This document shows positions 1 to 30,895 of a DNA stretch of 64,000 bases, piece after piece (the first letter of the stretch is position 1; every line of letters starts with the position of its first letter). The notes under the pieces are model-generated. The model searched no databases. It was not told where the DNA came from and saw nothing but the letters and a program-made list of their open reading frames with translations. Position numbers and translations under genes: made by a program. This stretch comes from Escherichia coli (lineage in GTDB: Bacteria > Pseudomonadota > Gammaproteobacteria > Enterobacterales > Enterobacteriaceae): the NCBI RefSeq assembly GCF_001677475.2, contig NZ_CP015229.1; one strand, written 5' to 3'.

Positions 1-289
1 GTGGCCACTGGCAGGATTTAATATGGCGCAACAGCCAGTCAGACAATGCACCAGCACCACCAGCAGCACGAATCACCCGTGCGTTACTGAAAAACGGCAG
101 CAATGTTTTGTCTTCCACCAGCGGCTGGCGAACGGCAGGAACGACCCCGGACGGCAGATTACGCATGCTTTTCGGTTCCGGCTCCACCAATACCCGGGTA
201 TTGTGGAATACCGGCATGGATTCACGGCCCGGCTTAACGATCACCAGCCCGAGTTCCGGTACCAGAACAGGTCGAAGTAATACCCGCAC
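1..289 (-). CDS. Partial ORF running off the left window edge (about 96 codons visible, possible GTG start near 289); hypothetical prophage protein
   Basis: Hand translation of the minus strand shows one frame open from about 289 to position 1 with protein-like composition; absent from the ORF track, probably because it is truncated. Function not recognised. Confidence 0.3.
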   Translation of the reverse strand, partial: MRVLLRPVLVPELGLVIVKPGRESMPVFHNTRVLVEPEPKSMRNLPSGVVPAVRQPLVEDKTLLPFFSNARVIRAAGGAGALSDWLLRHIKSCQWP

Positions 290-290
290 G

Positions 291-569
291 TTACCTCCAG
301 ATGCGTTGCTGGAATGTGCGAGACGGACGCGGTGGGCGCTCGGAGTACGGCAGCCTGACGTAGATTATCCAGAGACGATAATCGAGGCTGAGGGATTTCT
401 TAATCTCGTATCCACGCCTGCGGTAGTTCTGAATCAGCCATTTGGCCTGTTCTTCAGTGCATGGTTCATGCTGGAACCAGTCAGATTTGAATGTGAGAGA
501 ACGCCGCCCGTGCCTGCTGGCAAAGACGGCTGAATTATCGGAATTGTGTAGTCTGGAATTTTGCGCCAT
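291..569 (-). CDS. Hypothetical prophage protein (92 aa)
   Basis: ORF track entry; co-oriented and tightly packed with neighbouring minus-strand prophage genes; no family recognised. Confidence 0.35.
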   Translation of the reverse strand: MAQNSRLHNSDNSAVFASRHGRRSLTFKSDWFQHEPCTEEQAKWLIQNYRRRGYEIKKSLSLDYRLWIIYVRLPYSERPPRPSRTFQQRIWR

Positions 570-635
570 CGGCTTTCTCCGCTGGCACAGTGTTACTCAA
601 CAGGGGTTCAGCCCTGCGCTGAATTGTAGTTGAAT

Positions 636-899
636 TCACTCATATTCAAAAGCAGAAAAACCAGCCTTAAGCTCAGCTTCTTTCAGAGACTGCAATGATG
701 TGACAAATTCATTTTCACGCAAAATAAAACCATCCGTCACAAATCCATCCACAAAATAAATTAACGCAGCTCCACTCTTCCCTTGTTGAGACTGTAAACA
801 TTTAATACGGCAGTGACTGACAATAGCGCCATTCTCAACGCGCGCAGTGTAGAGGCCATCTTCACTAAAAATTTCACGTAATTCTTCGATTTTCATCAA
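636..899 (-). CDS. Hypothetical prophage protein (87 aa)
   Basis: ORF track entry; same orientation as the prophage late-early genes; no family recognised. Confidence 0.45.
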   Translation of the reverse strand: MMKIEELREIFSEDGLYTARVENGAIVSHCRIKCLQSQQGKSGAALIYFVDGFVTDGFILRENEFVTSLQSLKEAELKAGFSAFEYE

Positions 900-1049
900 C
901 AGAATCCTTCCAGATAAATAGCACTCCCCTGTTCGGGGTCCATCCCTCTTCTCCCTGCGCGCTAACTAAGTAATATGATTCTATTTACCCCAAACGCCCC
1001 CTCAAGAACCGCAACCAATGGAGTACACAAAAAGCTAATCAGCTACGCT

Positions 1050-1082
1050 ACGCAATAAAAAACCCGCCGAAGCGGGTTAAGT
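1050..1082 (-). terminator. Intrinsic terminator-like hairpin downstream of hok
   Basis: GC stem cccgcttcggcggg followed by a U-run when read on the minus strand. Confidence 0.5.
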
Positions 1083-1148
1083 GCGGGCGCGTTGAGGATG
1101 CCTGACACATCAGAGGTGGCGAGGGATTTCTCCCTCGCCAGGTCACTC

Positions 1149-1304
1149 TTACTCCTCAGATTCGTAAGCTGTGAAGACAGCGACCTCCGTCTGGCCGGTT
1201 CGGATTCGCACCTCGCAGAGGTCTTTCCTCGTTACCAGTGCCGTCACTATGACGGTTAAACAGATGACGATCAGGGCGATTAACATCGCCTTTTGCTGCT
1301 TCAT
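1149..1304 (-). CDS. hok: Hok/Gef-family type I toxin (51 aa membrane peptide)
   Basis: Translation MKQQKAMLIALIVICLTVIVTALVTRKDLCEVRIRTGQTEVAVFTAYESEE is near-identical in pattern to Hok/Gef proteins (single TM helix, conserved KDLCEV.IRTG..EVAVF.AYE). The 70-aa ORF track entry 1149..1361 is an upstream in-frame extension. Confidence 0.85.
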   Translation of the reverse strand: MKQQKAMLIALIVICLTVIVTALVTRKDLCEVRIRTGQTEVAVFTAYESEE

Positions 1305-1514
1305 AGCCTGCTTCTCCTTGCCTTTCGGCACGTAAGAGGCTAACCTACATGTGCAAAGCATGAAATTGGCCTCAGATTAATGTTAAGCGTCTTGCCGGAC
1401 GCGTAATGTTAACTGGGGCTTTTCTCTATCTGCCGTTGGTGTTCATGCCCGAGGCAGATAGCCTCAAGCACCCGCTGCAATTCTACTTAACTCTCCTTTT
1501 CCCGCAAACCGTTT

Positions 1515-1598
1515 TTATCCCCAGCGGCAAATCGAATACACCACCAGCGCCACCGCAAGTGCAATTCCTACCGTTGTGAATGCTTCAGGCCAGGTCAT
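1515..1598 (-). CDS. Small hydrophobic peptide (27 aa, MTWPEAFTTVGIALAVALVVYSICRWG)
   Basis: Its ATG overlaps the stop of the upstream 140-aa ORF in an ATGA arrangement; single predicted TM helix; below the ORF track size cut-off. Confidence 0.3.
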   Translation of the reverse strand: MTWPEAFTTVGIALAVALVVYSICRWG

Positions 1599-2017
1599 CG
1601 ATTCACCTCCTGCTCAATATTTTTAAGGTCATTTTCCGCATACAGTATTGCTGTCCTGGCTGCTCGTAACCGGGCTTTGGCATTTTTCTCTTCACGTTCA
1701 AGTTTTTCCACAGCTTCACGAAGAGCATCCCGCTTTGCATAGAGTGATTTAATCTCAGACACTATGTTTTCACCGTTTCTCGCACGGTCGAGAACAAGCT
1801 CGAACGGATCTAAAGCCAATCCGCATCGGTTACAGGTAATCGTACGATTCACTTCTGAAATTGTTGTACGGATATGCTGACAGCATTTTTGCTCGCCGCT
1901 TTTTCTGTCGGTTATCACAACGTTGAGAAGCCCTTCTTCCTCTGATTTTGGTTGCACAAGGGTGATAACATTGTCGATGTCATTTTTCATTAGCCCCCCA
2001 CTCTTGTGGTGATTCAT
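1595..2017 (-). CDS. Hypothetical prophage protein with a C-x2-C zinc-ribbon-like motif and a coiled-coil C-terminus
   Basis: ORF track entry; CCQH...CNRCG cysteine pairs; charged helical C-terminal half; a GGGGG Shine-Dalgarno precedes the internal MKNDIDN start. Confidence 0.5.
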   Translation of the reverse strand: MNHHKSGGLMKNDIDNVITLVQPKSEEEGLLNVVITDRKSGEQKCCQHIRTTISEVNRTITCNRCGLALDPFELVLDRARNGENIVSEIKSLYAKRDALREAVEKLEREEKNAKARLRAARTAILYAENDLKNIEQEVNR

Positions 2018-2190
2018 TCATCACCCCACTCATCACAATATGCTTCGACAGGTGTTTTTCCTGCTTCGTAGTCATCACGCCAGGCTTCAGCATCAACAGC
2101 ACTTCCACCACGTAACTCTGCATAGTCCATTAACAGTTCATGCCATTCTTCAAAACTGACGTTGTATTTAGTTGAACCAAAATCAGCCAT
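2014..2190 (-). CDS. Small hypothetical prophage protein (58 aa)
   Basis: Hand-found ORF MADFGSTKYNVSFEEWHELLMDYAELRGGSAVDAEAWRDDYEAGKTPVEAYCDEWGDE filling the gap between two track ORFs; its stop overlaps the next start. Confidence 0.3.
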   Translation of the reverse strand: MADFGSTKYNVSFEEWHELLMDYAELRGGSAVDAEAWRDDYEAGKTPVEAYCDEWGDE

Positions 2191-2365
2191 TTTGTTCTTC
2201 CTCTTCGTCTTTTATTGCGTGATATGAGTAATTGCAGTAGTTAAAGAAAATTTCTTTTGCTTCATCATGAATTTCATCAGGTGTTGCGTCATCGCCCACT
2301 TCGAATACATCCTCAAAATCTCCACCAGCTATTCCCGTTTCAATAATTATTTTGAACTTTCGCAT
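2183..2365 (-). CDS. Small acidic hypothetical prophage protein (about 60 aa from the internal start MRKFKII)
   Basis: ORF track 2183..2419; the internal start is preceded by a purine-rich Shine-Dalgarno. Confidence 0.4.
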   Translation of the reverse strand: MRKFKIIIETGIAGGDFEDVFEVGDDATPDEIHDEAKEIFFNYCNYSYHAIKDEEEEQNG

Positions 2366-2509
2366 TTCACTACCGCCCTTTCGGGCGGCCTCCTGATGAT
2401 TTGAGAGTGCAAAAATCACTCCGGTTAAGGATTAAATTTTATTTACAGAACTGAATTTAATTATTCAGATATACGTATCTGTAACCCTACGAACCTACTC
2501 ACTGGATGC

Positions 2510-2983
2510 CTATTTCATAAAAATAATCCAGTGAGTTTTATCGTTTTTTCCTGTTCGTTGACCGATAACAGGTTTTCTGTCGGTCAGTGCCAATATCTGG
2601 CGAACAGGTATTTGCGTTTCATTCCATTTGAAAATCAGAACGCCGTATGGCTGCAACACACGAAAGGCTTCTTTAAATCCCTGCCGCAAATCATCACGCC
2701 AGGTATCTTTATTTAGCCGTCCATATTTCTTTCCCATCCAGGCGTTATCACCAACACGCTCAAGATGCGGAGGGTCGAATACAACCATCGAAAAAGATGC
2801 GTCTGCAAATGGTAGTGCACGAAAATCTGCTATCAGGTCAGGGCTAATTATCAGGCGTCGTCCATCACATAATGTGTGCTCTTCTTTTCTGATATCGCTA
2901 AATATCGCCCGGTCGTCATTCTTATCGAACCAGAACATACGACTACCACAGGACATATCAAGAATGGTTGCCGATTCACTCAC
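2510..2983 (-). CDS. Small prophage DNA amino-methyltransferase (probable N6-adenine), orphan
   Basis: Motif I-like LDMSCGSR near the N-terminus and catalytic motif IV-like FDPPH about 55 residues later; no adjacent restriction endonuclease ORF. Confidence 0.7.
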   Translation of the reverse strand: MSESATILDMSCGSRMFWFDKNDDRAIFSDIRKEEHTLCDGRRLIISPDLIADFRALPFADASFSMVVFDPPHLERVGDNAWMGKKYGRLNKDTWRDDLRQGFKEAFRVLQPYGVLIFKWNETQIPVRQILALTDRKPVIGQRTGKNDKTHWIIFMK

Positions 2984-3203
2984 TGTTTACCTCCTGCAAC
3001 GCTACCCGGTACGCCTTCTTTATCCACGCTGTACTGCCATATAACTTCGTCTTCATAAAAAACACCCCTGCACGGCTCGCCGATATCCCCGGACAGGCTA
3101 ACAGCACTGCATCCACCACACGGTTATGCTTCCGGAACTCCATTACAGTACTGCTGATAACCACCTGTCCCACCGGGCCGTAATCCTGATACAGGATTTT
3201 CAC
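2976..3203 (-). CDS. Hypothetical prophage protein (75 aa)
   Basis: ORF track entry in a tightly packed minus-strand gene array. Confidence 0.35.
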   Translation of the reverse strand: MKILYQDYGPVGQVVISSTVMEFRKHNRVVDAVLLACPGISASRAGVFFMKTKLYGSTAWIKKAYRVALQEVNSE

Positions 3204-3454
3204 GCAGACACCCTCCTGTCGAAATAAACGTAGTTATTCACTGTGCGCAGCGGCATTCCAAATTTTCTGGCGATTTCTCTCCTGGACACGCCACGCTGAT
3301 GCAATTGTCGCGTCAGCTCAATATCACTCTGCGGATATTTTGCTGACTGGTGATAATCACCCCGTAACATCATACTAATACCCAGTTCCCGCGCTTTCGT
3401 TCTGACCGCCGCCTCACTACGGCCAATCAGACTGCCGATGCTTTTTACCTTCAT
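3200..3454 (-). CDS. Small helix-turn-helix protein (GcrA-like N-terminal motif), about 84 aa
   Basis: ORF track 3200..3601; probable start at the internal MKVKSIGSL; two HTH-like segments (SIGSLIGRSEAAVRTKARELGIS and SRREIARKFGMPLRTV). Confidence 0.45.
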   Translation of the reverse strand: MKVKSIGSLIGRSEAAVRTKARELGISMMLRGDYHQSAKYPQSDIELTRQLHQRGVSRREIARKFGMPLRTVNNYVYFDRRVSA

Positions 3455-3510
3455 TGTTCCCGCGCACTGCCGAAGAATAAGGATTTCAGCCCGCACCCAG
3501 CCACGCCATC

Positions 3511-4272
3511 TCACTTCACATCCTCTCTGGAACAATTCATCTGCCGTATAATATCCCGGTACTTGTTCAGCTCCCGCAGCGCGGCGCAGACACGCTCCCA
3601 CTTCTGGACATGGCTTTTCGCCCGACGCAATTCGCGGTTTGCTATATGCAGCGATGGTAAAATCAGGTCATCCCCTTGCGTTTCGGTGAGCGATGGTAAC
3701 GACTGCACCATGTCCGCCACAGTTTCTGTTTTAATATCTTCCTGTGTTGCAGCTTCCTGTACCGGTAACGCAACACCGGCTGGCTGAGGAAAGGCTTTAC
3801 CATCGGTTTCCGCTACCGATGCGGCTTTCAGCTCTGCTGGTAAATTATCTCCCGGCATGCAGTAGCGAAATTTACCGTTCTGGTTTACGCGTGCCAGCCG
3901 CCCCGTTGCGGTTACTACTGCCAGCGTGGAAGCAACCTTGCGAGTGCTGACACAGAACTTACCCGCCAGTTCCTCACACGTTTTAGCTCCCTCCTGACCG
4001 ATAAACTCAATCATCATGTCAGCGGTAACTTTTCGTTCGACCGCCCTGGTCAGCACATCCGGTACTTCAGATTGTGCTGGCTGCTCTTCGGTTACCCCGG
4101 ATTCACCTTCGCCAGCCAGAAACCAGGTGTGACCCGTTTTATCAACGACGCCATTTCTTTTCAGTTCCCACAGCTCGTTCAGCACTTCTTCACGACTGAT
4201 ATCAAGTCGCGCAGCCAGTTCTGTCGACGTGGCTTTCCCCATTGCTTTCAGTGCGTCAAAAACAGTCTCCAT
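3511..4272 (-). CDS. Hypothetical prophage protein with an N-terminal winged-helix-like domain (about 253 aa)
   Basis: ORF track 3511..4338; the probable start METVFDALK at 4272 avoids overlap with the upstream gene; N-terminal [27 protein letters not shown] resembles a wHTH. Confidence 0.5.
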
Positions 4273-4306
4273 TAAAATTTCCTCCCGGTAAAAATCACTT
4301 CTCAAC

Positions 4307-4972
4307 TCAAACAAAACCAGCCGTTTTCCGGCGTTCATACTCCTGTTTCAGCAACTCAATTGGCGTTGGTCCCGACGGGCGTTTGGGTGCCGCCAGTTGT
4401 CGCCGGACTGGCGGAATGCTCAGGCCATTACCAACATGCTTTGCCCATTTCGTCAGTTGCCGTTCTGCAAGCCGTTTTAACTCCCCTTCGGTCATCTGGC
4501 GCTCAATCCCCTTTGAACGCATCTCGAGGCAAATGTGATACAGCACAGGCTGAGACCACGGGTACTTATCACTTCCGTCGTATCGCCAGGACTCATTGCG
4601 CCAGCGGCGGTACTCCTCCATCACAGCATCCACCGTCAGACCGAATGGATTGGCTCCGCTTTCCGAAATCAGTGCCACAAACTCAGCCAGGTCCGGAGGC
4701 CATGTTTCACCCGCCCGGCAGCGGTCCATGCACTGGCGGCAGACCTGCCGGATTTGCTGCTCAGTCATCGCGCCAATCTGTGCAATCCAGAGCTTCGAAG
4801 GTGCGGCCCCGTTCTTCCGGGGCCAGCGGTTCGAATAAACCTCCCCCATGAGTTCCCACAGCTTCCAGGCCGTTTCCGTCGCTGATAAATCCGTTTTCAC
4901 GTTCCCACTGCTCACGTGCTGCCCGAATTTCCTGAACTGCCCGTGATGCGGTGCCACCTGGTGCTGCTGCAT
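4307..4972 (-). CDS. Lambda P-like replication protein (helicase loader); start uncertain
   Basis: C-terminal half aligns in pattern with lambda P ([28 protein letters not shown]) from memory. The ORF as listed overlaps the upstream gene by 212 bp; internal starts at about 4846 or 4768 are more likely. Confidence 0.55.
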
Positions 4973-5876
4973 GGTTTGCCCCCTTGCTGACTGGTTTAAC
5001 CTGTGCCCTGACGTGATTTACGTGACGGGCGAATTTCTGCTCCCACTGAACCTGCGTGAAAACTTTACCCTCCTCAGTCCAGTAATCCCTGAATGCGGCA
5101 AGTTCAGCAGGTGTAAATTCCGGCTCTGGCAGAGCCATCCCCCACAACGCAGCCCGTCGTCGAAAATCCCGTGACGGATACCAGCTATCGGTCATCGGAA
5201 ATTTTCCGATGGGTTCGTTCACGCCGTCCAGGAGCACGGGGGGGGTTGTCTGTAGCGACAAAACTCCCCGCTCACTGGTCGGAGCACTCTCACGTGCGTT
5301 ATGTGTGGGGTTTAGATCTTTGGGTTCCTTTGGGTTCCGTGATCCGTTTTTGGGTGTCTTTGATGGAAAATTTGGGTGTCTTTGGTTATTTTCCATGCAG
5401 CAAAGAGTTCCGTTTTTGGGGCTGTTTTGTGCTGAAACATAACCGTTTTCGGTACTGTTTTTATTAACAGCACCAATTTTACCCACCTTTAAAGACACCC
5501 GTTTTTGGGTGTATTCAGGCTCGGCAACACTTTCTTCTACACCGATAAGTCGGTACACCACAATTTGCTTTGTTCTGCCTTTTCTCTCACCGGTATCAAT
5601 AATTAACCCAATCTCCATCAGGTGTCGTAAGCTGTCCTGCACAGTCTTTTTGTTCAGTTCCGTTACTTCTGCCAGTGCAGATACAGACGGGTATGCACAC
5701 AAATCGGCACCGCACATATCAGCAAGCCAGGTCAATACTGACTTACTGGATGAACTGCCGGTTTTCACCTTTTTAGCCCACCGTAGTGCATCGATACTCA
5801 TACGAACCTCTGGCAGACATTTGTTTATCTGCAAAGTAATAATGATATTGCTGACGATACGCATGCTTGAAAGCAA
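4761..5876 (-). CDS. Prophage replication initiation protein (N-terminal HTH, C-terminal DnaT-like domain)
   Basis: N-terminal winged-helix-like region (SVSALAEVTELNKKTVQDSLRHLMEIGLI), low-complexity linker, C-terminal WYPSRDFRRR...ELAAFRDYW...WEQKF resembling DnaT/DUF1376-type phage replication proteins; probable true start near 5801 (MSIDALRW). Confidence 0.6.
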   Translation of the reverse strand: MLSSMRIVSNIIITLQINKCLPEVRMSIDALRWAKKVKTGSSSSKSVLTWLADMCGADLCAYPSVSALAEVTELNKKTVQDSLRHLMEIGLIIDTGERKGRTKQIVVYRLIGVEESVAEPEYTQKRVSLKVGKIGAVNKNSTENGYVSAQNSPKNGTLCCMENNQRHPNFPSKTPKNGSRNPKEPKDLNPTHNARESAPTSERGVLSLQTTPPVLLDGVNEPIGKFPMTDSWYPSRDFRRRAALWGMALPEPEFTPAELAAFRDYWTEEGKVFTQVQWEQKFARHVNHVRAQVKPVSKGANHAAAPGGTASRAVQEIRAAREQWERENGFISDGNGLEAVGTHGGGLFEPLAPEERGRTFEALDCTDWRDD

Positions 5877-6324
5877 TAGCTTTTTCTATAAGCTCGTCAG
5901 TCTCACGTTCCACAACAGATGGATCCGCAAAAAGCAGCCCGGACTCCACCACATCGCCATATTCTTTGTTTAACCCGGCGATCATGTACGTAATGCTTTT
6001 TCCGTCAGTAATTTCACAATACAACCTGAAATCGCTGATCCGGATAGCCTCCATAATTGCCGGAATCAGCGCCGTGAATTTTTCCCGCTTATCCCTGGTG
6101 TCGATAGCTTTCCAGCGTTCGAATATCTTCACCCGGTTAACGCCCAGCGCCCGTTGATCAACCTCGCCATCATTAAACGTGACGCGTTGAACATCGATGT
6201 TCGGGCGTTCTTTCAGAGCCCAGAATGCTTCCGTGATTAAAATAGTCGCCTGCTCCTGTGTCATTCCTGGTCGGCATACCCAGGCATCCAGAGCCTCACA
6301 AACCTGTTCAGGGGTGATTTTCAT
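5773..6324 (-). CDS. YdaT-like prophage regulatory protein (CII-position gene)
   Basis: Lies directly downstream of the cro-like gene; central segment REKFTALIPAIMEAIRISDFRL resembles the YdaT-family helix; call is by position and weak motif only. Confidence 0.45.
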   Translation of the reverse strand: MKITPEQVCEALDAWVCRPGMTQEQATILITEAFWALKERPNIDVQRVTFNDGEVDQRALGVNRVKIFERWKAIDTRDKREKFTALIPAIMEAIRISDFRLYCEITDGKSITYMIAGLNKEYGDVVESGLLFADPSVVERETDELIEKAIAFKHAYRQQYHYYFADKQMSARGSYEYRCTTVG

Positions 6325-6535
6325 TGTTCAACCGCCCCGCCCGCTTTGCCTTACGATATTCGTCATAAACTTTGGGGTCGTACTGAAGTTCCCCGCCGGA
6401 TGCCTCTTGCAGGCGCATCGCGCGACCTTCAGGAACCAGTTCCCCCCATGCAGCAATGCTTGCCAGCCTAACTCCTGCGGCATTGGCAAGCTTTGTTTTG
6501 CTGCCAAAAAACGCTATAGCATCAATTTTCAACAT
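6308..6535 (-). CDS. dicC: DicC-like Cro-type regulator
   Basis: 75-aa protein divergent from the DicA-like repressor across a 76-bp operator region; sequence pattern MLKIDAIAFFGSKTKLANAAGVRLASIAAWGE...EGRAMRLQEASGGELQYDPKVYDEY matches my recollection of DicC. Confidence 0.7.
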   Translation of the reverse strand: MLKIDAIAFFGSKTKLANAAGVRLASIAAWGELVPEGRAMRLQEASGGELQYDPKVYDEYRKAKRAGRLNNENHP

Positions 6536-6611
6536 ATCGAGTTCCTTAGATTTTCCTAAGGAAACTAGATCGTAGAGAAACCTAAGTCAATAAAAATTAG
6601 AATTCCCTAAT
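6536..6611. promoter_or_regulatory. Divergent operator/promoter region between the dicC-like and dicA-like genes
   Basis: Contains the inverted repeat CCTTAG-N6-CTAAGG and a further CCTAAG half-site; expected location of the immunity switch. Confidence 0.5.
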
Positions 6612-7019
6612 ATGAAAAACGAAACCTTCGGTGCTCGCCTCTTACATAGGCGTAAAAAATTAAAACTGTCTCAGGCCGCATTAGGTAAGCTGGTCAAAGT
6701 GGCTCACGTAACAATTTCTCAATGGGAAAGAGATGAAACACAGCCGGCGGGGAAAAGATTATTCGCACTGAGCCAAGCGCTTCAGTGCTCACCGACTTGG
6801 CTTCTTTTTGGGGATGAAGATAAACAACCAGGCGAACCGATCCCGGATAATCAGCCAGCCATTCTGACAGAAGATCAAAAAGAGTTACTTCAACTGTTCG
6901 ACGCACTGCCTGAGTCAGAGCAAAAGGCCCTGTTGTCAGAGATGCGTGCTCGAGTTGAAAATTTCAACAAACTTTTTGAAGAACTACTCAAAGCTCGCAA
7001 AAGAAGCGCAAACAAATAA
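6612..7019 (+). CDS. dicA: DicA-like prophage repressor (XRE-family HTH)
   Basis: 135 aa; strong pattern match to DicA as I recall it (LFALSQALQCSPTWLLFGDEDKQP, LFDALPESEQ, MRARVENFNKLFEELLKAR). Confidence 0.85.
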   Translation: MKNETFGARLLHRRKKLKLSQAALGKLVKVAHVTISQWERDETQPAGKRLFALSQALQCSPTWLLFGDEDKQPGEPIPDNQPAILTEDQKELLQLFDALPESEQKALLSEMRARVENFNKLFEELLKARKRSANK

Positions 7020-7029
7020 CCCCCTTTTT

Positions 7030-7150
7030 TCTCCACACCCTGTAATAAAAAGCACAAAATTTCAAACAATTGTGTTTTTTACATCAAAAAACTTAGGTTT
7101 TTCTACATAAACAGCTTGACCACATACCTTAGGTTATTCTAAATTTCATT
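7030..7150. promoter_or_regulatory. Putative second operator set and early promoter downstream of dicA
   Basis: Repeated motifs CTTAGGTTTTTCTAC and CCTTAGGTTATTCTAA share the CTTAGG half-site with the dicC-dicA intergenic region; AT-rich. Confidence 0.4.
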
Positions 7151-7221
7151 CATCAAGACACCGCACGGTGTTCTCAGCAAACAGTTCCGCTACCCCAGCG
7201 TTAAGGGGAAATGAGGTCAGC

Positions 7222-7377
7222 ATGGATACTATCGATCTTGGTAACAACGAATCTCTGGTGTGCGGCGTGTTCCCAAACCAGGACGGCACATTCACCGCGA
7301 TGACGTATACCAGAAGCAAAACGTTTAAAACCGAAGCTGGCGCGCGTCGCTGGCTGGAAAGAAATTCAGGTGAGTGA
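7222..7377 (+). CDS. ydfA: YdfA-like small protein (51 aa)
   Basis: Size and position (first gene of the dicB operon) match Qin ydfA; the ORF track 7168..7377 includes an upstream extension. Confidence 0.65.
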   Translation: MDTIDLGNNESLVCGVFPNQDGTFTAMTYTRSKTFKTEAGARRWLERNSGE

Positions 7378-7378
7378 T

Positions 7379-7507
7379 ATGGATTTCGACGCAATCATGG
7401 AAAAGGCTTACGAAGAATACTTCGAAGGCCTTGCCGAAGGCGAAGAAGCTCTCAGCTTCAGTGAGTTTAAACAGACGCTTTCCAGTTCGGCAAAATCTAA
7501 CGACTGA
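7379..7507 (+). CDS. ydfB: YdfB-like small acidic protein (42 aa)
   Basis: Hand-translated MDFDAIMEKAYEEYFEGLAEGEEALSFSEFKQTLSSSAKSND; the ATG lies 1 nt after the ydfA stop; size and position match Qin ydfB. Confidence 0.55.
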   Translation: MDFDAIMEKAYEEYFEGLAEGEEALSFSEFKQTLSSSAKSND

Positions 7508-7536
7508 TAAGAGAAGCGGCACCGCGAGGAATCAGT

Positions 7537-7752
7537 ATGCAGAAACGAGAACCCGTCATCATCGCACCAGACTATACCGAGGATGAAATTTACGAATGGA
7601 TGTGCGGAAAGATACGCGCCATTAATTACCTGAAGCAGGCCGCTGACTACAAAGAGCGCCTCTCTAAAGAACTGGTGTCAGCGGAGCAGGATATTACCAC
7701 TCTGGCAAAAAGCGCGGCATTAAACGTTTCGCGAGTGACTGAAAACTACTGA
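7537..7752 (+). CDS. ydfC: YdfC-like protein (71 aa)
   Basis: ORF track; size and position match Qin ydfC. Confidence 0.6.
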   Translation: MQKREPVIIAPDYTEDEIYEWMCGKIRAINYLKQAADYKERLSKELVSAEQDITTLAKSAALNVSRVTENY

Positions 7753-7841
7753 CCACTGAGCTCAAGTAGTTCTCCACAGATGAAGTGCGTGCGCCGGACA
7801 CGGATAAACCTCCGGCATGCTCTTTAACAATCTGGATATTC

Positions 7842-8288
7842 CTAACCACAAAGAAATCGCATCAATTTGGATTTTGTGGGCAACTTCTCTTGTTGTTCGA
7901 TGGAGACGCCCATTTTGATCTGTGTTTTTAAGATCGCAATATCTTTAAGTGATGACCAAATATGACCATCTGTTTTTTCCAGAATTTTTAACTGAATTTT
8001 CAATTCCGAATCAGAATATTTTTCTGCATCATCAAAAAGCTGCAAATATTCTGCGGATTTTCTCATGGCATTACCTGACTTTTGTCCGAATCCATAAATC
8101 GTTTGGACGGTTGCGATCACAACAATAAAAACGCCAGAAATTTCCGGAATGAATCCGCCAATGACAGATGAACCGAGGATAACACTCACTACTGAGAGAA
8201 GTTTATCGAGACGACCAGTCGCTACAGAAAATAGTTGCTCAAGAAAATAGCCATATAAAATTCTGTCAAGAATATCATCCCGGTCCAT
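7842..8288 (-). CDS. Two-TM membrane protein encoded antisense inside the dicBF operon (148 aa); candidate superinfection-exclusion or abortive-infection protein
   Basis: ORF track; AT-rich codon usage distinct from its flanks; AGGTGA Shine-Dalgarno 7 nt upstream of the ATG; two adjacent hydrophobic helices (about residues 35 to 75) and a charged C-terminal domain; sits in extra DNA absent from the K-12 Qin ydfC-dicF interval as I recall it. Confidence 0.6.
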   Translation of the reverse strand: MDRDDILDRILYGYFLEQLFSVATGRLDKLLSVVSVILGSSVIGGFIPEISGVFIVVIATVQTIYGFGQKSGNAMRKSAEYLQLFDDAEKYSDSELKIQLKILEKTDGHIWSSLKDIAILKTQIKMGVSIEQQEKLPTKSKLMRFLCG

Positions 8289-8746
8289 ACATCATCACCT
8301 GCTTGTTTGGTTGTTGCTGTTCCCCCTCTCCTCCGAAGGAGTTGGAGATGGTTTTGGTCGAATGTTTTTCTCTGGTATGTGATCCCAGACTGTTTTATGC
8401 GTCGAATTGCCACCACCTGCTTGTGCTCTTTGCTCTGTCATATGATTTCCTTGGATCGTTGGGGATATCCAGATTATACAGATTTCCTGTCGTTGGGGAA
8501 TGACGGAAACCACCTCGCCTGACGTGGTTAAAAGCAGGCACACAACACGAAAGCGCACGGCGAAGTTCGTCTCACTGTACGGTGTCGGTAAATTTAATTC
8601 GACCGTGCGCTTCCGGTTGTGGCACTCCGCGAAATGACGCGGCGGTAAGTATGGCGGGGTTATTCTTTCCCCGTTGAGGACACCGGGTTGTCAGGTTGAC
8701 CATACGCTTAAGTGACAACCCCGCTGCAACGCCCTCTGTTATCAAT

Positions 8747-8799
8747 ATTCTGGTGACATTTGGCGGTATCAGTTTTACTCCGTGACTGCTCTGCCGCCC
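8747..8799 (+). ncRNA. dicF: DicF small RNA
   Basis: The sequence tTCTGGTGACaTTTGGCGGTATCAGTTTTACTCCGTGACTGCTCTGCCGCCCTTTTT matches the 53-nt DicF sequence from memory with about two substitutions, ends in a GC hairpin plus U-run, and lies about 185 bp upstream of dicB as in Qin. Confidence 0.65.
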
Positions 8800-8983
8800 T
8801 TTTTAAAAGTGAATTTTGTGATGCGGTGAATGCGGCTCAGCGCACGCGGAACAGTTAAATCGGTAAAGAGGTCATTTGCTGAGTAACGGGAATGCTCTGT
8901 ATCCGGCGTTAATTGTTAACTGGTTAACGTCACCTGGAGGCACCAGGCACTGCATCACAAAATTCATTGTTGAGGACGCGATA

Positions 8984-9172
8984 ATGGAAAAGTTATCATG
9001 CAATGCCAGTACGTCTGAACTTCGTTTCGAAATTGGCGTTATCACTGGAGAAAAAACATTTATTGAAGACGCCATTAAGCAGAGAAAACTCGAGCAGGAC
9101 CTGTTAAATGAAGTATGCATTCCTTCAATGCTGGCTCGTCTGGACCTGCTGCAAAAAGGATATAAACAATGA
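8984..9172 (+). CDS. dicB: DicB-like cell division inhibitor (62 aa)
   Basis: Internal start MEKLSCNASTSELRFEIGVITGEKTFIEDAIKQRKLEQDLLNEVCIPSMLARLDLLQKGYKQ aligns along its length with K-12 DicB (FEIGV, EDAI.KRK, SMLARL); the ORF track 8876..9172 is an upstream extension. Confidence 0.85.
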   Translation: MEKLSCNASTSELRFEIGVITGEKTFIEDAIKQRKLEQDLLNEVCIPSMLARLDLLQKGYKQ

Positions 9173-9360
9173 ATACAACATTTGCACTCGTTCTGACAGT
9201 TTATCTTGTTTCCGGCGAATCTCTTGAGCTGGTGACTGGCTTATACGGTTCAATGAAAGAATGCATGGCTGCCGCAGCAGAACAAAAAATTCCCGGTAAC
9301 TGTTATCCGGTAGATAAAGCTACTCACACTAATAATAACGAAATACCGGCGGGACTTTAA
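9169..9360 (+). CDS. ydfD: YdfD-like small protein (63 aa) with an N-terminal hydrophobic segment
   Basis: Immediately follows dicB with a 4-bp overlap, as ydfD does in Qin; 63 aa with a signal/TM-like N-terminus. Confidence 0.6.
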   Translation: MNTTFALVLTVYLVSGESLELVTGLYGSMKECMAAAAEQKIPGNCYPVDKATHTNNNEIPAGL

Positions 9361-9453
9361 AACAGCACCGAAATAAACATCCGGTTTCATTTTTATATGC
9401 CAGCAATGGCAGGGATTTGTTCACCCTTAAATCTGTAATGAGGTTAAAACAAA

Positions 9454-11925
9454 ATGAATAAAGTCTTTATTTGCGCAGCTATTCCGGACGAACAGGCAAT
9501 AAAGGAAGAAGGTGCAGTCGCTGTGGCCTCTGCCATTGAAGCCGGTGACGAGCGCCGCGCCCGTGCCAAATTTACCTGGCAATTCCTGGAGCAATATCCG
9601 GCTGCTCAGGACTGCGCTTATAAATTTCTTGTCTGTGAGGATAAACCCGGCATGCCCCGCCCTGCCATTGACTCCTGGGATACCGAATATATGCAGGAAA
9701 ACCGCTGGGATGAGGAATGCGCTTCCTTTGTTCCGGTCGAACCAGAATCCGATCCGATGAACGTCAATTTTGACAAGCTGTCCCCTGAAGTACAGAACGC
9801 GGTCCTGATTAAGTTCGGTACATGTGAAAACATCACCGTTGATATGGCGATTGACGCTCAGGAATTACTGCAGGAAGACGTGGCTACCTTTGACGGGCAT
9901 ATCGTTGAAGCACTGATGAAAACGCCTGAAATTAACGCTATGTATCCGGAACGCAAACTGTTCGCTATCGGATGGGTTAAACACAAATGTAAGCCGGGTA
10001 CCAAATGGACCGAAATTCAGGCTGAATTACGTAACTGGAAAAAACGGCAGGACGCAGAGCGCAAAGAGACTGGAAAATACACGTCTGTTGTTGATCTTGC
10101 CCGCGCCAGAGTCAACCGACATAGCACTGAAAACTCAGCAGAAAAAATCAATTCTGTCACTGCCGCCATTCGTCGCGAATACAAGCAGACCTGGAAAACA
10201 CTGGATAAAGAACTGGCCTATGCTCTCTGGCCTGGTGACATTGATGTCCGGAACATTGACGGCAGCATCCATAGATGGGCAAAAAATGAAGTTATCGACA
10301 AGGATCGCGAAGACTGGAAACGCATCTCCGCATCAATGCGCAAACAGCCTGATGCGATTCGCTACAGCCGTCAGACGATTTTTGGCCTTGTTCGTGAACG
10401 TCCGGTCGACATTCACAAAGACCCCGTGGCACTGAATAAATACATCACTGAATACCTTGCGACAAAGGGCGTGTTTGAAGATGAAGAAGAAGATCAGAGC
10501 GTTGTTGATGTTCTCCAGTCGTCAGCATCACAAACTGATGCAGTGGAAACTGAAGTACCTGATACCCAAAAAAATGAAAGCGCGCTGGAAGATGAATCAT
10601 CTGTAGAGCGTGAGGGGCCGTTCTACTTCCTCTTCAGCGATAAGGATGGAGAAAAATACGGTCGCGCAAACAAACTTTCAGGTCTGAATAAGGCGCTCGC
10701 TGCAGGGGCTACTGAAATCACGAAAGAAGAATATTTTGCTCGAAAAAACGGTACATACTCAGGTTCACAACAAAATACTGGTGCATCTGACACGACCGCA
10801 CAACCAGAGCCGGTAAAAGTTACTGCTGACGAAGTGAACAAAATTATGCAGGCAGCCAATATCAGCCTGCCTGACGCCAGTCAGTTGCTCGCTGCATCAC
10901 GTGGTGAATTTGTTGCAGGGATTAGCGACCCGAATGATCTGAAATGGATTAAAGGGATCCAGACCCGCGATTCTATGAACCAAAACCAGCAAGAAACGGA
11001 ACAGAACGACCAGAAAGCGGAACAAAGCAGCCCAAATGCGCAACAAAACGAGCCAGAAACGAAACAATCCGAACCAGTAGTGCAACAGGAACCGGAAAAA
11101 GTCTGCACCGCCTGCGGTCAGAGCGGTGGCGGCAACTGCCCCGATTGTGGCGCGGTCATGGGCAACGCAACATACCAGGAAACATTCGATGAAGAGAATC
11201 AGGTTGAAGCTCAGGAGAATGATCCGGAGGAAATGGAAGGCGCTGAACATCCACACAAGGAGAACACTGGCGGCAATCAGCATCACGCCAGCGATAGTGA
11301 AACTGGCGAGACGGCAGATCCCTTAATTACGGTGAACAGTCATCACGTTATCACATCCACCAGCAGGACGTGTGACCATCTAATGATCGACCTTGAAGCC
11401 ATGGGAATAAATCCTGATGCCCCGATTATCTCAATAGGTGCAATATTTTTCGATCCGCAAACCGGAGATATGGGACCGGAATTTAGTAAGACTGTCGATC
11501 TGGAAACTGCTGGCGGAGTCATTGATCGGGACGCCATTAAATGGTGGCTTAAGCAATCACGCGAAGCGCAATCTGCCATTATGACCGATGAAATCCCGTT
11601 AGATGATGCACTGTTACAATTGCGGGAATTTATCGACGAAAACTCCGGTGAATTTTTTGTTCAGGTCTGGGGAAATGGAGCAAACTTCGACAACACGATT
11701 TTGCGCCGTTCATACGAACGGCAGGGGATCCCCTGCCCGTGGCGTTACTACAACGATCGCGATGTGCGCACAATCGTTGAGCTGGGGAAAGCCATAGACT
11801 TCGATGCCAGAACTGCTATCCCATTCGAAGGTGAGCGCCATAATGCACTTGATGACGCTCGTTACCAGGCAAAATACGTTTCAGCTATCTGGCAAAAACT
11901 GATCCCGAGTCAGGCTGATTTTTAA
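9454..11925 (+). CDS. Large prophage exonuclease in the RecE position (823 aa) with a C-terminal DEDDh-type 3-prime-5-prime exonuclease domain
   Basis: C-terminal motifs MIDLEAMG (Exo I), WGNGANFDNTIL (Exo II) and HNALDDARYQAKY (Exo III); central low-complexity Q/E-rich linker with C-x2-C...C-x2-C; occupies the ydfE/recE position between dicB-ydfD and xis-int. Confidence 0.75.
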   Translation: MNKVFICAAIPDEQAIKEEGAVAVASAIEAGDERRARAKFTWQFLEQYPAAQDCAYKFLVCEDKPGMPRPAIDSWDTEYMQENRWDEECASFVPVEPESDPMNVNFDKLSPEVQNAVLIKFGTCENITVDMAIDAQELLQEDVATFDGHIVEALMKTPEINAMYPERKLFAIGWVKHKCKPGTKWTEIQAELRNWKKRQDAERKETGKYTSVVDLARARVNRHSTENSAEKINSVTAAIRREYKQTWKTLDKELAYALWPGDIDVRNIDGSIHRWAKNEVIDKDREDWKRISASMRKQPDAIRYSRQTIFGLVRERPVDIHKDPVALNKYITEYLATKGVFEDEEEDQSVVDVLQSSASQTDAVETEVPDTQKNESALEDESSVEREGPFYFLFSDKDGEKYGRANKLSGLNKALAAGATEITKEEYFARKNGTYSGSQQNTGASDTTAQPEPVKVTADEVNKIMQAANISLPDASQLLAASRGEFVAGISDPNDLKWIKGIQTRDSMNQNQQETEQNDQKAEQSSPNAQQNEPETKQSEPVVQQEPEKVCTACGQSGGGNCPDCGAVMGNATYQETFDEENQVEAQENDPEEMEGAEHPHKENTGGNQHHASDSETGETADPLITVNSHHVITSTSRTCDHLMIDLEAMGINPDAPIISIGAIFFDPQTGDMGPEFSKTVDLETAGGVIDRDAIKWWLKQSREAQSAIMTDEIPLDDALLQLREFIDENSGEFFVQVWGNGANFDNTILRRSYERQGIPCPWRYYNDRDVRTIVELGKAIDFDARTAIPFEGERHNALDDARYQAKYVSAIWQKLIPSQADF

Positions 11926-11977
11926 TGTTCAACCCTAATTGCCGCTAACCGTATATAGTTAGCGGCGGTTATGAGAT

Positions 11978-12187
11978 ATGGCTATGAGCAGCTTATTTTT
12001 AACCGAAGATGAATTGCTAATATTAACGGGCTGCAAATATGCAAGCCACCAGCGAAAATGGTTAATGGAAAACGGGCTTCCGTTCTATACCAATCGTAGT
12101 GGCAAACCGATTGTCAGCCGGGATCTATTTACCTGCAATAAAACTTTACCACCACGCGAGGTAGAGCCGAATTTTGGTGCAATCTGA
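11978..12187 (+). CDS. Excisionase-like small DNA-binding protein
   Basis: 69-aa ORF immediately upstream of and overlapping the integrase start; the position is typical of xis. Confidence 0.5.
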   Translation: MAMSSLFLTEDELLILTGCKYASHQRKWLMENGLPFYTNRSGKPIVSRDLFTCNKTLPPREVEPNFGAI

Positions 12188-13212
12188 TGGGAAGACGAAG
12201 GAAAAATCCTGAACACGAAAAATTACCTCCAAATGTATACCCAAATAAATATAGTTATGTATGGAAACCAACATCCAGAGAATCTGTCACACTAACCGCC
12301 ATCAAGGATGGTTTAGCTGCTTTATGGAAAAAGTATGAGGAAACTGTAAATAATCGCGATCGCGCAATGACATTCGGTCGCTTGTGGGAAAAATTCCTCG
12401 CCAGCGCCTATTACAGTGACCTCAGTCCAAGAACACAAAAAGATTATCTGCAACATCAAAAAAAGTTGCTTGCCGTATTCGGTAAGGTGCCGGCAGATTC
12501 CATAAAACCAGAACACATCCGTCGATACATGGACAAGAGAGGGGAACAGAGTAAAACGCAAGCCAACCATGAAAAAAGCAGTATGTCCCGCGTTTACAAT
12601 TGGGGGTATGAGCGAGGGTACGTGAAGGGTAACCCATGTGCAGGTGTAAGTAAATTCAAGGCCAAAAACCGCGAACGATATGTAACCGACAAAGAATACC
12701 AGGCAGTATTAAGTGTTGCACCTCTTCCTGTTTTTATCGCAATGGAAATTGCCTATCTGTGTGCAGCGAGGGTTTCCGATGTGTTATCACTGAAATGGGA
12801 GCAGATTGGAAACGACGGGATCTTTATCCAGCAAGGGAAAACAGGGAAAAAACAGATAAAAGCATGGAGTCCACGATTACAGGCGGCGATCGAAAAAGCA
12901 AAACAGTTACCAACATCTGCCTATGTAATCAGCAATCAATATGGCAACCGATATATGTACAAAGGTTTTAACGAAATGTGGGTAGAAGCAAGAAATCACG
13001 CAGGCAAAATTTCAGGTATTTTAACCGACTTCACCTTTCATGATCTGAAGGCGAAAGGAATTTCAGACTATGAAGGAAGCAGCCGGGATAAGCAACTTTT
13101 CTCTGGTCACAAAACCGAAGGGCAAGTGCTAATCTATGACAGAAAGGTTAAAGTTTCACCAACACTTGATGTCCCGTTACCTGATAATATTCCAAGAAAA
13201 TATTCCAAGTAA
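12187..13212 (+). CDS. int: Tyrosine-type phage integrase
   Basis: 341 aa; C-terminal catalytic region with H-x-x-R (FTFHDLKAKG) and the tyrosine motif (VLIYDRK); ends about 50 bp from the 3-prime end of tRNA-Ser. Confidence 0.9.
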   Translation: MGRRRKNPEHEKLPPNVYPNKYSYVWKPTSRESVTLTAIKDGLAALWKKYEETVNNRDRAMTFGRLWEKFLASAYYSDLSPRTQKDYLQHQKKLLAVFGKVPADSIKPEHIRRYMDKRGEQSKTQANHEKSSMSRVYNWGYERGYVKGNPCAGVSKFKAKNRERYVTDKEYQAVLSVAPLPVFIAMEIAYLCAARVSDVLSLKWEQIGNDGIFIQQGKTGKKQIKAWSPRLQAAIEKAKQLPTSAYVISNQYGNRYMYKGFNEMWVEARNHAGKISGILTDFTFHDLKAKGISDYEGSSRDKQLFSGHKTEGQVLIYDRKVKVSPTLDVPLPDNIPRKYSK

Positions 13213-13264
13213 TTCCAAGTGTGATTTTTGTCACTGACTTAATGATGTGTAAGTGATTGAATTT

Positions 13265-13354
13265 TGGCGGAGAGAGGGGGATTTGAACCCCCGGTGGAGT
13301 TGCCCCCACTCCGGTTTTCGAGACCGGTCCGTTCAGCCGCTCCGGCATCTCTCC
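13265..13354 (-). tRNA. serU: tRNA-Ser (anticodon CGA), serU-like
   Basis: Reverse complement reads GGAGAGATGCCGGAGCGGCTGAACGGACCGGTCTCGAAAACCGGAGTGGGGGCAACTCCACCGGGGGTTCAAATCCCCCTCTCTCCGCCA, a 90-nt class II tRNA with a CGA anticodon and long variable arm. Confidence 0.9.
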
Positions 13355-13447
13355 GTTCAGATGGTTGCCATGATGCCAGGAAATTTGGCATTTTAACAGT
13401 CCCTGTCCGTGCAATTTTGTTCAAGTGACGAGTTTGCGAGCAAAACG

Positions 13448-14245
13448 ATGATTAAGTGGCCCTGGAAAGTACAAGAATCAGCACATCAAACTGCCCTTCC
13501 CTGGCAGGAAGCACTATCGATCCCCCTTTTAACGTGTCTGACGGAACAGGAACAAAGCAAATTAGTCACTCTTGCCGAACGTTTTTTACAGCAAAAACGG
13601 CTTGTTCCTTTACAGGGCTTTGAACTGGATTCATTAAGAAGCTGCCGGATAGCACTTCTATTTTGCCTGCCCGTTCTGGAGTTAGGACTGGAATGGCTGG
13701 ATGGTTTTCATGAAGTCTTAATTTATCCTGCGCCATTTGTGGTCGATGATGAATGGGAAGACGATATCGGTCTGGTGCATAACCAACGTATTGTTCAGTC
13801 AGGTCAGAGCTGGCAGCAAGGGCCTATCGTTTTGAACTGGTTGGATATACAAGATTCTTTTGATGCTTCTGGTTTTAACCTGATTATTCATGAAGTCGCT
13901 CATAAGCTGGACACCCGTAACGGCGATCGCGCCAGTGGAGTTCCCTTTATTCCGTTGCGTGAGGTTGCTGGCTGGGAACACGATCTTCATGCTGCAATGA
14001 ACAACATTCAGGAAGAAATCGAATTAGTTGGCGAGAATGCGGCGAGCATTGATGCTTATGCTGCCAGTGATCCTGCTGAATGTTTTGCCGTACTTTCTGA
14101 ATATTTCTTTAACGCCCCAGAACTTTTTGCTCCTCGTTTCCCTTCATTGTGGCAACGTTTCTGCCAATTTTATCAACAAGATCCTTTGCAGAGACTGCAT
14201 CACGCTAATGATACAGACTCGTTTTCGGCGACGAATGTTCATTAA
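13448..14245 (+). CDS. mtfA: MtfA (Mlc titration factor A) zinc-dependent peptidase
   Basis: Internal start MIKWPWK within ORF 13409..14245; HEVAH zinc-binding motif; matches E. coli MtfA/YeeI in sequence and position next to asnT. Confidence 0.85.
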
Positions 14246-14345
14246 TTAACAACTTTGCAGATTAATTAACCAATTGAAATGACTTATGAAATTTAGTGTT
14301 GACAGACAAGGTACCGCTAAGTAATATGCGCCCCGTTCACACGAT

Positions 14346-14421
14346 TCCTCTGTAGTTCAGTCGGTAGAACGGCGGACTGTTAATCCGTATGTCACTGGTT
14401 CGAGTCCAGTCAGAGGAGCCA
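14346..14421 (+). tRNA. asnT: tRNA-Asn (GUU)
   Basis: TCCTCTGTAGTTCAGTCGGTAGAACGGCGGACTGTTAATCCGTATGTCACTGGTTCGAGTCCAGTCAGAGGAGCCA; canonical E. coli tRNA-Asn with encoded CCA; preceded by the GC-rich discriminator taatatgcgccccgttcac. Confidence 0.95.
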
Positions 14422-14509
14422 AATTCTAAAAATTCGCTTTTTTAGCGCAATGTCACTGACCTTAGTTGAACATTGTTTTTTAACGGATAGCGGTTTTTTA
14501 ACATCTTAA

Positions 14510-14543
14510 GCGCCCTCGACCTTTATGGTTGAGGGCGTTTTGC
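14510..14543 (+). terminator. Intrinsic terminator downstream of asnT
   Basis: Hairpin gccctcgacc/ggttgagggc followed by TTTTG. Confidence 0.6.
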
Positions 14544-14734
14544 TATGAACGCCATCACCATTTTCCCCTCGATTATAAAACTTGAGTTATTCAGTAGTCT
14601 CCCCTCTTGCAACTCACACCCAAAACTGCCTAACGAAAAGTTATTAATTTTCAATCATATTGCTATCAGGATTTACATTTTTTCGCTGTGCTAGAAAGGG
14701 CGCATTTATGTTAGCTCGTTCAGGGAAGGTCAGC

Positions 14735-22738
<8,004 letters not shown>

Positions 22739-26003: not shown

Positions 26004-26104
26004 TAGTCTGGCGAAGATCATCCGATCTTCGCCTTACACTTTTGTTTCACATTCCTGTGACATACTATCGGATGTGCGGTAATTGTATGGAACAGGAGAC
26101 ACAC

Positions 26105-27559: not shown

Positions 27560-27619
27560 TAAGTTCTGAACCTTCTTATCAAAAATAGATGTGAAGGATT
27601 AAGTAAGACATCTGGCAAA

Positions 27620-30888: not shown

Positions 30889-30895
30889 CAGCGAT

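Follow-up and report, generated by a model that had tools for sequence, protein, structure and literature searches.

Introduction

The tRNA-Ser(CGA) gene serU is a published integration site of lambdoid prophages, including Shiga toxin (Stx) phages and carriers of type III secretion effectors. Prophages at this site have been described in Escherichia coli O145:H28 (PMC7067040) and O121:H19 (PMC8767318), and it is the site of Stx phages in Shiga toxin-producing E. coli (STEC) negative for the locus of enterocyte effacement (LEE) (PMC8065619). In the commensal strain SE11, the serU prophage PP_SE11-6 is 47.6 kb long and carries a 77-nt duplication, with its phage type listed as "unclear" (PMC2608844). 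Salmonella phage ST64B, whose integrase is 59% identical to the one described below, was also reported to insert in serU (PMC10100743), and for prophage Sp14 of O157:H7 strain Sakai an intact Int was noted and an excised circle was detected experimentally (PMC2669165). Here we analyzed 64,000 nucleotides of E. coli contig NZ_CP015229.1 (assembly GCF_001677475.2), referred to as the window. Positions 1-13326 very likely represent the int-proximal portion, with the early genes, of a Sp14/Qin-type lambdoid prophage of full size, which carries its own lambda-type tyrosine integrase and is inserted in serU.

As a biological feature this prophage is ordinary and already known: it is present in public genomes at 99-100% identity, its site is published, and little about it is new. 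Its practical value lies in the exact phage/host boundary within the tRNA gene, in an integrase that is intact despite an annotation flag, and in a set of probable arm-type sites.

Lambdoid organization and the junction with serU

Prophage genes in 1-13212 were identified using Pfam, PHROGs, NCBIfam and PADLOC, RNAs using Rfam, and the tRNA using ARAGORN and Rfam. All sizeable open reading frames (ORFs) in this interval matched phage families (Pfam, PHROGs), and their order is that of a lambdoid early region. A tyrosine integrase gene and a gene in the excisionase position adjoin the att site at one end, the repressor and cro genes diverge with a 76-bp spacer between them, and an O/P-type replication module lies on the right side of cro. 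The first-pass annotation of this DNA had called a lambdoid prophage truncated by the window. Both parts of that call agree with our results: gene order and gene families fit, and copies at 99% identity in strains GB089 and OkiPb01715 hold Q, a set of lysis genes and a lambda-type head and tail region in the part that would lie beyond the window. The element passes coordinate 1 within a DUF968/ydfU-like gene, which is cut by the window start.

At the other end, the prophage meets the tRNA-Ser(CGA) gene serU (13265-13354, minus strand; ARAGORN, Rfam), which is a hybrid gene with a host 5' part and a phage 3' part. The stop codon of int is 52 nt away from the tRNA 3' end, in keeping with the distance of about 50 bp given earlier. 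Directly beyond the tRNA, the host genes mtfA (13448-14245), asnT (14346-14421) and yeeJ (14660-22738, plus strand) follow in K-12 order, as the first-pass annotation had stated for mtfA. yeeJ is an intact 2692-aa ORF for an inverse-autotransporter adhesin, with an IAT_beta domain and many Big_1 and Invasin_D3 repeats.

To define the junction, we performed a four-way alignment of the window attR, GB089 attR, GB089 attL and K-12 attB, which resolved the att junctions to the base and bore out integration at tRNA-Ser(CGA). In GB089, attL consists of a K-12-type yodB flank, followed by the 62 nt of the tRNA 3' end with two K-12-type bases and then by phage DNA. On the other side, attR begins in phage DNA and passes through these 62 nt, here with two phage-type bases, into the host 5' part of the tRNA. 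In the window, the attR core thus corresponds to the 62 nt of phage-derived tRNA 3' sequence at 13265-13326, which is repeated at attL in the relatives. Because the homology of both attL and attR ends at an identical GAGACCG, the prophage ends at 13326, and the boundary between phage and host lies within the tRNA gene at 13326/13327 rather than at 13354, where the tRNA gene ends; homology among attL, attR and attB stops at this point. The serU 3' end reads TGGCGGAGAG...GAGACCG, with A and T as the K-12-type bases at the two single-nucleotide polymorphism (SNP) positions. In a BLAST comparison, the repeat extends over 77-78 nt (window 13250-13326 versus positions 785-862 of the GB089 locus), and the second att repeat is located 47.6 kb leftward, adjoining yodB, in the 99%-identical copies of both GB089 and OkiPb01715.

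The arrangement is that of an integration that restores the 3' end of its tRNA target: attP copies the 3' part of the tRNA, the gene remains intact, and in the relatives a 3' fragment is found at the far end. According to the alignment, the crossover must fall within 13308-13326, between the second SNP (13307) and 13326, an interval corresponding to the anticodon stem-loop. The two SNPs, at window positions 13296 and 13307, correspond to tRNA positions 59 and 48, which form a base pair in the long variable arm, G48:C59 in the lysogen and A48:U59 in K-12. The change is compensatory, and both versions are predicted to fold as a cloverleaf. This pair is changed in the lysogen because the gene takes its 3' half from the phage, and the G:C pair imposed by the phage may alter the tRNA.

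Based on these features, integration would proceed as follows. Int would bind the arm-type repeats described below, three in the P' arm beside int and two in the P arm, and would recombine the 62-nt attP core, a copy of the serU 3' end, with chromosomal serU. Strand exchange would take place within the anticodon stem-loop. The tRNA gene would be rebuilt from the host 5' half and the phage 3' half, and the displaced host 3' fragment would remain at the far end beside yodB.

Integrase and candidate arm-type sites

The int gene (12187-13212, plus strand) encodes a full-length, 341-aa lambda-type tyrosine integrase with matches to Pfam Phage_integrase, Phage_int_M and SAM-like domains. Immediately before it, abutting the int start, a DUF4224 protein (11984-12187, plus strand; Pfam DUF4224, E 2e-15) occupies the position of the excisionase gene xis. 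Its alignment with lambda Int starts at residue 1, with the N-terminal MGRRR...LPPN arm-binding motif, and covers the catalytic domain as well. Its length is that of both of the largest homologue clusters (1013 and 2068 sequences), and R195, K218, H285, H308 and Y317 are invariant in the family. The position of the lambda catalytic Arg311 (HELRSLS) is occupied by Lys288 (HDLKAKG). This residue is a family trait rather than damage, because it is invariant among 18 family members down to 56% identity, including those from Klebsiella, Salmonella, Dickeya and Gilliamella. The invariant lysine may mark a variant active site. Activity of the integrase family is implied by the records of phages KpF5, P7641 and Chris1, which contain a serU fragment, by phage genome records in which attP is intact, by the ST64B report and by the excised circle of Sp14.

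The sequence around the int stop codon contains three direct copies of (T/A)ATTCCAAG (13188-13219, plus strand), which overlap the stop codon. They are candidate Int-binding sites of the P' arm type, and the motif has no further exact match in the 64-kb window. Outside the P' arm, GB089 and OkiPb01715 contain just two exact copies, both of them in the P arm at approximately 40 and 105 bp from the attL core; one is inverted and the other direct. The N-terminal arm-binding domain of Int is accompanied by putative cognate repeats in attP, three in P' and two in P, with no further exact copy in the 50-64 kb covered. We regard these repeats as probable arm-type sites because their layout is retained between phages whereas the motif varies along with the integrase, the pattern that arm-type sites should show (see KpF5 below).

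The Prokaryotic Genome Annotation Pipeline (PGAP) flags int as "frameshifted" in GB089 (locus 47347-48397) and OkiPb01715 (locus 47916-48966), and the DNA of both is 100% identical to window 12187-13237. We rejected the pseudogene call: the ORF is uninterrupted over 341 aa, has the usual length of the family and keeps the catalytic positions. The C-terminal ...KYSK tail recurs in homologues at 68-69% identity. The flag is probably an annotation artefact at the repeated ATTCCAAG around the stop codon.

Completeness of the prophage and alternative explanations

The same prophage was found in four complete genomes (GB089, 09-00049, RM9088 and OkiPb01715) at 99.0-99.3% identity and 96% query coverage. 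In GB089 and OkiPb01715, it spans 47.7 kb between yodB-attL and attR-serU and carries Q, two tRNAs, holin, lysozyme and Rz-type genes, followed by genes for terminase, portal, protease, decoration and capsid proteins and a lambda-type tail module. The portal frameshift is confined to GB089, the gene being intact in OkiPb01715. A truncated J, which PGAP marks as "incomplete" in the relatives, was also considered and rejected: the ORF is uninterrupted over 1105 aa, and a divergent C-terminus is more likely. Closer still to the window are the draft contigs GCA_018682865.1 and GCA_016118575.1, which differ from it by only 1-2 bases in 15.8 kb (1-15801). Contigs of this kind reach at least 5 kb further left, through RusA, Q, a CPBP-family protease and TerB-family genes, and another draft contig at 99.8% identity extends to holin, lysozyme and Rz1. 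Q and lysis genes are found on contigs with 99.8-99.99% identity to the window. The closest relatives are approximately 47.7 kb in size, and a full-length prophage is likely in the present strain.

Several observations weigh against this interpretation. The window ends inside the prophage, with attL and all late genes of the present copy outside it, and each of the near-identical draft contigs comes to an end in the late region, before the attL of this lineage. PGAP pseudogene flags in the relatives affect int, J, DUF1627, a methyltransferase fragment and, in GB089 only, the portal gene. Int has a lysine at the position of the lambda catalytic Arg311, even if it is invariant across the family, and the repressor is predicted to lack a RecA-cleavable peptidase domain, making SOS induction doubtful. 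In the related Sp14, Xis was judged probably non-functional, excision was weak and there was no packaging (PMC2669165). An alternative is a prophage that sits at serU as a degraded, immobile remnant in this strain, its left part deleted or rearranged. The left end beyond the window, the breaks of the draft contigs and the pseudogene flags in the closest relatives are compatible with such a remnant, and E. coli lambdoid prophages are often defective, as in Sakai Sp14 at the same site, in which several modules are defective (PMC2669165). However, no phage gene is visibly broken within the window, where DUF1627 is intact, unlike in GB089. Moreover, GB089 and OkiPb01715 carry full-size copies at 99% identity with an att site at either end, the same-lineage contigs run on for at least 5 kb to the left, and the 99.8% relative reaches the lysis genes. 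The very low divergence from the GB089 copy, compared with approximately 2% in the backbone, argues for recent mobility. On balance, we consider a remnant quite improbable.

A phage-like integrative island or satellite, such as a phage-inducible chromosomal island (PICI), would share only int, repressor and replication genes with phages, and the window indeed shows int, xis, repressor/cro and replication genes without structural genes, which is a satellite gene set too. Yet the element does not end within the 10-15 kb of a satellite but passes coordinate 1 inside a nin-region gene, identical or near-identical contigs go on to RusA, Q, holin, lysozyme and Rz1, and complete genomes show a full lambda-type head and tail module. 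Contradicted by the relatives in this way, a satellite or island was rejected, and we give it almost no weight. The full-size lambdoid prophage with its own integrase is thus the interpretation adopted here.

Distribution and horizontal spread

In K-12 MG1655, yodB, serU and mtfA are contiguous without an insertion, as had been stated in the first-pass annotation. A 1.2-kb probe over this K-12-type empty junction is unbroken in 3808 of 5426 complete E. coli genomes. The int-serU-mtfA junction of the window was found in 1129 of the 5426, about a fifth, including O157:H7. The earlier description of a "strain-specific integration" is therefore overstated.

The prophage and its surroundings differ in their similarity to GB089. 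The prophage arm beside attR (7501-13326) is 99.88% identical, with 7 differences, and prophage positions 2501-5000 are 98.1% identical. The adjoining 2.7 kb of chromosome (13327-16000) shows 99.1% identity (Fisher p = 2e-7 against the prophage arm), and the outer chromosome (23175-31429 and 33840-64000) shows 97.5-97.9% (Fisher p = 9e-42 against the prophage arm); over the flank as a whole, identity ranges from 97.4% to 99.1%. This sharp fall in identity from the prophage arm to the flank fits independent lysogenisation by a mobile phage or transfer of the element, and the comparison points to horizontal spread of the prophage between backbones that are approximately 2% apart. The drop at attR is a small, clean illustration of how a single prophage lysogenises E. 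coli backbones that have diverged from each other.

Immunity region and leftward operon

The repressor gene (6612-7019, plus strand) encodes a 135-aa prophage repressor of the DicA type with a helix-turn-helix (HTH) only; it matched NCBIfam NF007257 DicA at full length (237 bits, cut-off 101) and Pfam HTH_3. Neither Pfam nor NCBIfam detected an S24 peptidase domain in it. Opposite to it lies a Cro/DicC-like regulator gene (6308-6535, minus strand; Pfam P22_Cro, E 3e-13), whose product is 93% identical to the GB089 copy. Lysogeny would be kept by the DicA-type repressor opposite this Cro/DicC-like gene, and the TTAGA..CTAA palindromes in the 76-bp spacer between the two genes may serve as operators. 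In a study of O157 prophages, repressors without an S24 peptidase domain were noted to be unable to respond to the SOS signal (PMC2669165). An induction assay with mitomycin C may thus give a false negative, because the repressor has no RecA-cleavable domain and Sp14 excision was weak and unpackaged (PMC2669165).

Segment 6512-7108 comprises the repressor gene together with the spacer upstream of it. Compared with the GB089 prophage, which is approximately 99% identical elsewhere, this segment has been replaced by another allele. At the protein level, the two repressors share 65% identity, and the segment is 98.6% identical to prophages of other E. coli strains. A changed immunity compared with the GB089 copy cannot be claimed from this replacement, since both alleles retain the recognition-helix region and the TTAGA..CTAA palindromes.

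Downstream of the repressor, the small genes ydfA (DUF1391), ydfB and a ydfC-like gene (7222-7752, plus strand) are collinear with Qin (Pfam DUF1391; phrog_1744). The DicF small RNA (8748-8799, plus strand; Rfam RF00039, 77 bits, gathering score 48) is followed by dicB (8984-9172, plus strand; Pfam DicB, E 1.9e-38) and ydfD/DUF1482 (9169-9360, plus strand; Pfam DUF1482, E 3e-19). The last gene before the one in the xis position encodes an 823-aa YdfE-type exonuclease (9454-11925, plus strand) with a C-terminal 3'-5' exonuclease domain (Pfam Rv2179c-like, E 9e-66; phrog_2082 at full length), and both YdfE_N and YdfE_C domains were found on the same exonuclease gene in a near-identical draft contig. 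The leftward operon would produce the YdfA/B/C-like proteins, DicF RNA, DicB, the 823-aa exonuclease, Xis and Int.

No N-like antiterminator was found, and a promoter and terminator scan showed no excess of sites over shuffled controls. For further RNAs, a permissive Rfam scan gave only two sub-threshold matches, one to STnc100 between dicF and dicB (8812-8961, plus strand; 32 bits, gathering score 47) and one to isrK (1057-1138, minus strand; 31 bits, gathering score 50). Both are probably weak relatives or chance matches.

Rightward early genes

The rightward operon is encoded on the minus strand throughout. It encodes a YdaT-family protein in the cII position (5773-6324; Pfam YdaT_toxin), the same position as that of ydaT in Rac. 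An O-position replication initiator of 346 aa (4761-5801) contains a DnaT-like DNA-binding domain (Pfam DnaT, E 2.8e-17, and HTH), and the exact 346-aa protein is present on many contigs with serU prophages. It is followed by a lambda P-type replication protein, or helicase loader (4307-4849; Pfam Phage_lambda_P, E 1.5e-16), and by a DUF1627 protein of 253 aa (3511-4272; Pfam DUF1627, E 3.9e-94), which is intact here and in near-identical draft contigs but flagged as a frameshifted pseudogene in GB089. Next come an HTH DNA-binding protein (3200-3454), a phrog_1001 protein (2976-3203) and an orphan DNA methyltransferase of 157 aa (2510-2983; phrog_954, E 4e-86; PADLOC MTase_II and orphan MTase models). 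Three small phage ORFs occupy 1595-2419, with matches to DUF7167 (2183-2365), phrog_519 (2014-2190) and phrog_1621 (1595-1990); all are annotated as coding sequences in GB089.

The part nearest to the window start contains a type I toxin-antitoxin locus. The HokD-like toxin gene hok (1149-1304; Pfam HOK_GEF, E 1.2e-23), annotated as hokD in GB089, has an overlapping mok-like frame that extends to 1361, and the sok antitoxin RNA region lies at 1299-1473 (Rfam RF01794, 112.8 bits, gathering score 59). Beyond it are a Rem-like small protein (636-899; phrog_340), which matches PF27490 Rem in a near-identical draft contig and is collinear with rem of Qin, and a small phrog_1212 phage protein (291-569; E 9.6e-36), an annotated coding sequence in GB089. 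The 5' part of the DUF968/YdfU-like nin-region gene (1-289) is collinear with GB089 coding sequence 34431-35480, and near-identical draft contigs contain the full 349-aa gene with PF06147. The rightward operon would thus supply YdaT, the O-like and P replication proteins and the nin-region gene products, followed beyond the window by Q, lysis and lambda-like structural genes.

A predicted membrane protein gene opposite to the early operon

Between the ydfC-like gene and dicF, a 148-aa ORF (7842-8288, minus strand) is transcribed against the early operon. It encodes a predicted membrane protein with a hydrophobic hairpin at approximately residues 29-68, and its only match is to phrog_6315 (unknown function). 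There was no Pfam match even at E 10, nor any NCBIfam or PADLOC match. Homologues form 23 clusters, of which the named ones all come from E. coli or Salmonella. An AlphaFold model was too poor to be used (predicted local distance difference test score, pLDDT, 55.8).

The segment that contains this ORF (window 7606-8529) is absent from Qin. In Rac, sieB holds the same slot in the order repressor, DUF1391 gene, opposite-strand membrane gene, small RNA and division inhibitor. We considered whether the ORF might be homologous to SieB or represent a known defence gene and rejected both, with a BLASTP E value of 0.46 against Rac SieB and no match to a defence family. Judging from its orientation and position, it could conceivably be an undescribed superinfection-exclusion or abortive-infection gene, although we think this unlikely.

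Chromosomal flank

Unlike the prophage, with its 99% matches, the chromosomal backbone of the window (13327-64000) has no close match among complete E. coli genomes. Over 40000-64000, identity is at most 98.3% and thus below 99% in all 5424 records. At least 80% of this interval is covered in only 636 of the 5426 complete genomes. The yeeJ gene is frameshifted in GB089, and its 3' end (21000-23000) is only 74-91% identical to GB089.

A 2.4-kb insertion sequence element of the IS21 family (31430-33839) splits the cbl regulator gene beside asnU; cbl is intact in GB089. The element contains istA (31523-33022) and istB (33019-33774; Pfam IstB_IS21, E 9e-62), and the overlap of two GB089 alignments at this position suggests a 6-bp target duplication. 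Between asnV and tmaR, at approximately 36850-57250, the window carries cobUST, a cobalamin riboswitch (40015-40189), pocR, pduF and a full pduA-V propanediol microcompartment operon. K-12 is not known to have this operon. A match to the STnc230 small RNA was found at 41253-41336.

Comparison with known systems

With phage lambda, the prophage shares arm-type repeats around the core and the gene order int-xis-exonuclease ... repressor/cro-O-P. The attB core of lambda is 15 bp long and lies between gal and bio, whereas the present prophage targets a tRNA gene with a 62-nt core. It also differs from lambda in the lysine in place of Arg311 and in a repressor without a peptidase domain.

Closer integrases are found in the Klebsiella and Citrobacter phages KpF5, P7641 and Chris1 and in Salmonella phage ST64B, which encode enzymes of the same family at 58-60% identity. 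The genome records of KpF5, P7641 and Chris1 contain a serU 3' fragment approximately 100 bp from int. In KpF5, three direct repeats separate int from an identical 62-nt core, and a pair of repeats, one inverted and one direct, lies beyond it, giving the same 3+2 layout and the same end-point of the core; its arm-site motif is different and of the TTTTCTCA type. These four phages have other hosts and other phage backbones, without nucleotide similarity to the present prophage outside the tRNA fragment.

In early-gene organization, the cryptic K-12 prophage Qin is a close counterpart, collinear with the window over ydfU-rem-hokD ... dicC-dicA-ydfA-ydfB-ydfC-dicF-dicB-ydfD-ydfE. The window therefore has a dicB operon in the Qin order, with one extra opposite-strand ORF between the ydfC-like gene and dicF, and its repressor belongs to the DicA subfamily. 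DNA identity is 77-84% over 4.6 kb. However, Qin is located between ydfJ and rspB rather than at serU and has no O/P replication genes. In Qin, IS2 interrupts ydfE and intQ, both of them pseudogenes, whereas ydfE, xis and int are full length in the window.

The counterpart at the same site is Sp14 of O157:H7 Sakai (CP-933U in EDL933), which is annotated as a lambda-like prophage directly after yodB, i.e., at serU, and has the same 77-nt att repeat. The O157:H7 int-serU-mtfA junction is 96.2% identical to that of the window, showing the same site and the same integrase as in the Sp14/CP-933U lineage. The P arm of Sp14 keeps the distal TATTCCAAG site and an inverted copy with one mismatch at the proximal position. 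The early layout of cI/cro, dicB, a 2472-nt exonuclease gene, hok, a DUF968 gene and Q is shared as well. DNA similarity is only mosaic, at 80-93% over approximately 5.4 of 13.4 kb. Sp14 has a 214-aa cI repressor and a cII-like regulator, whereas the present prophage has a DicA-type repressor and YdaT. Sp14 also carries the effector genes espJ and tccP at its far end, neither of which is annotated in the GB089 or OkiPb01715 copies. In size, the match is with PP_SE11-6 of strain SE11: going by its published description, its 47.6 kb and 77-nt duplication correspond to the 47.7 kb and the 77-78-nt repeat of the closest relatives of the present prophage.

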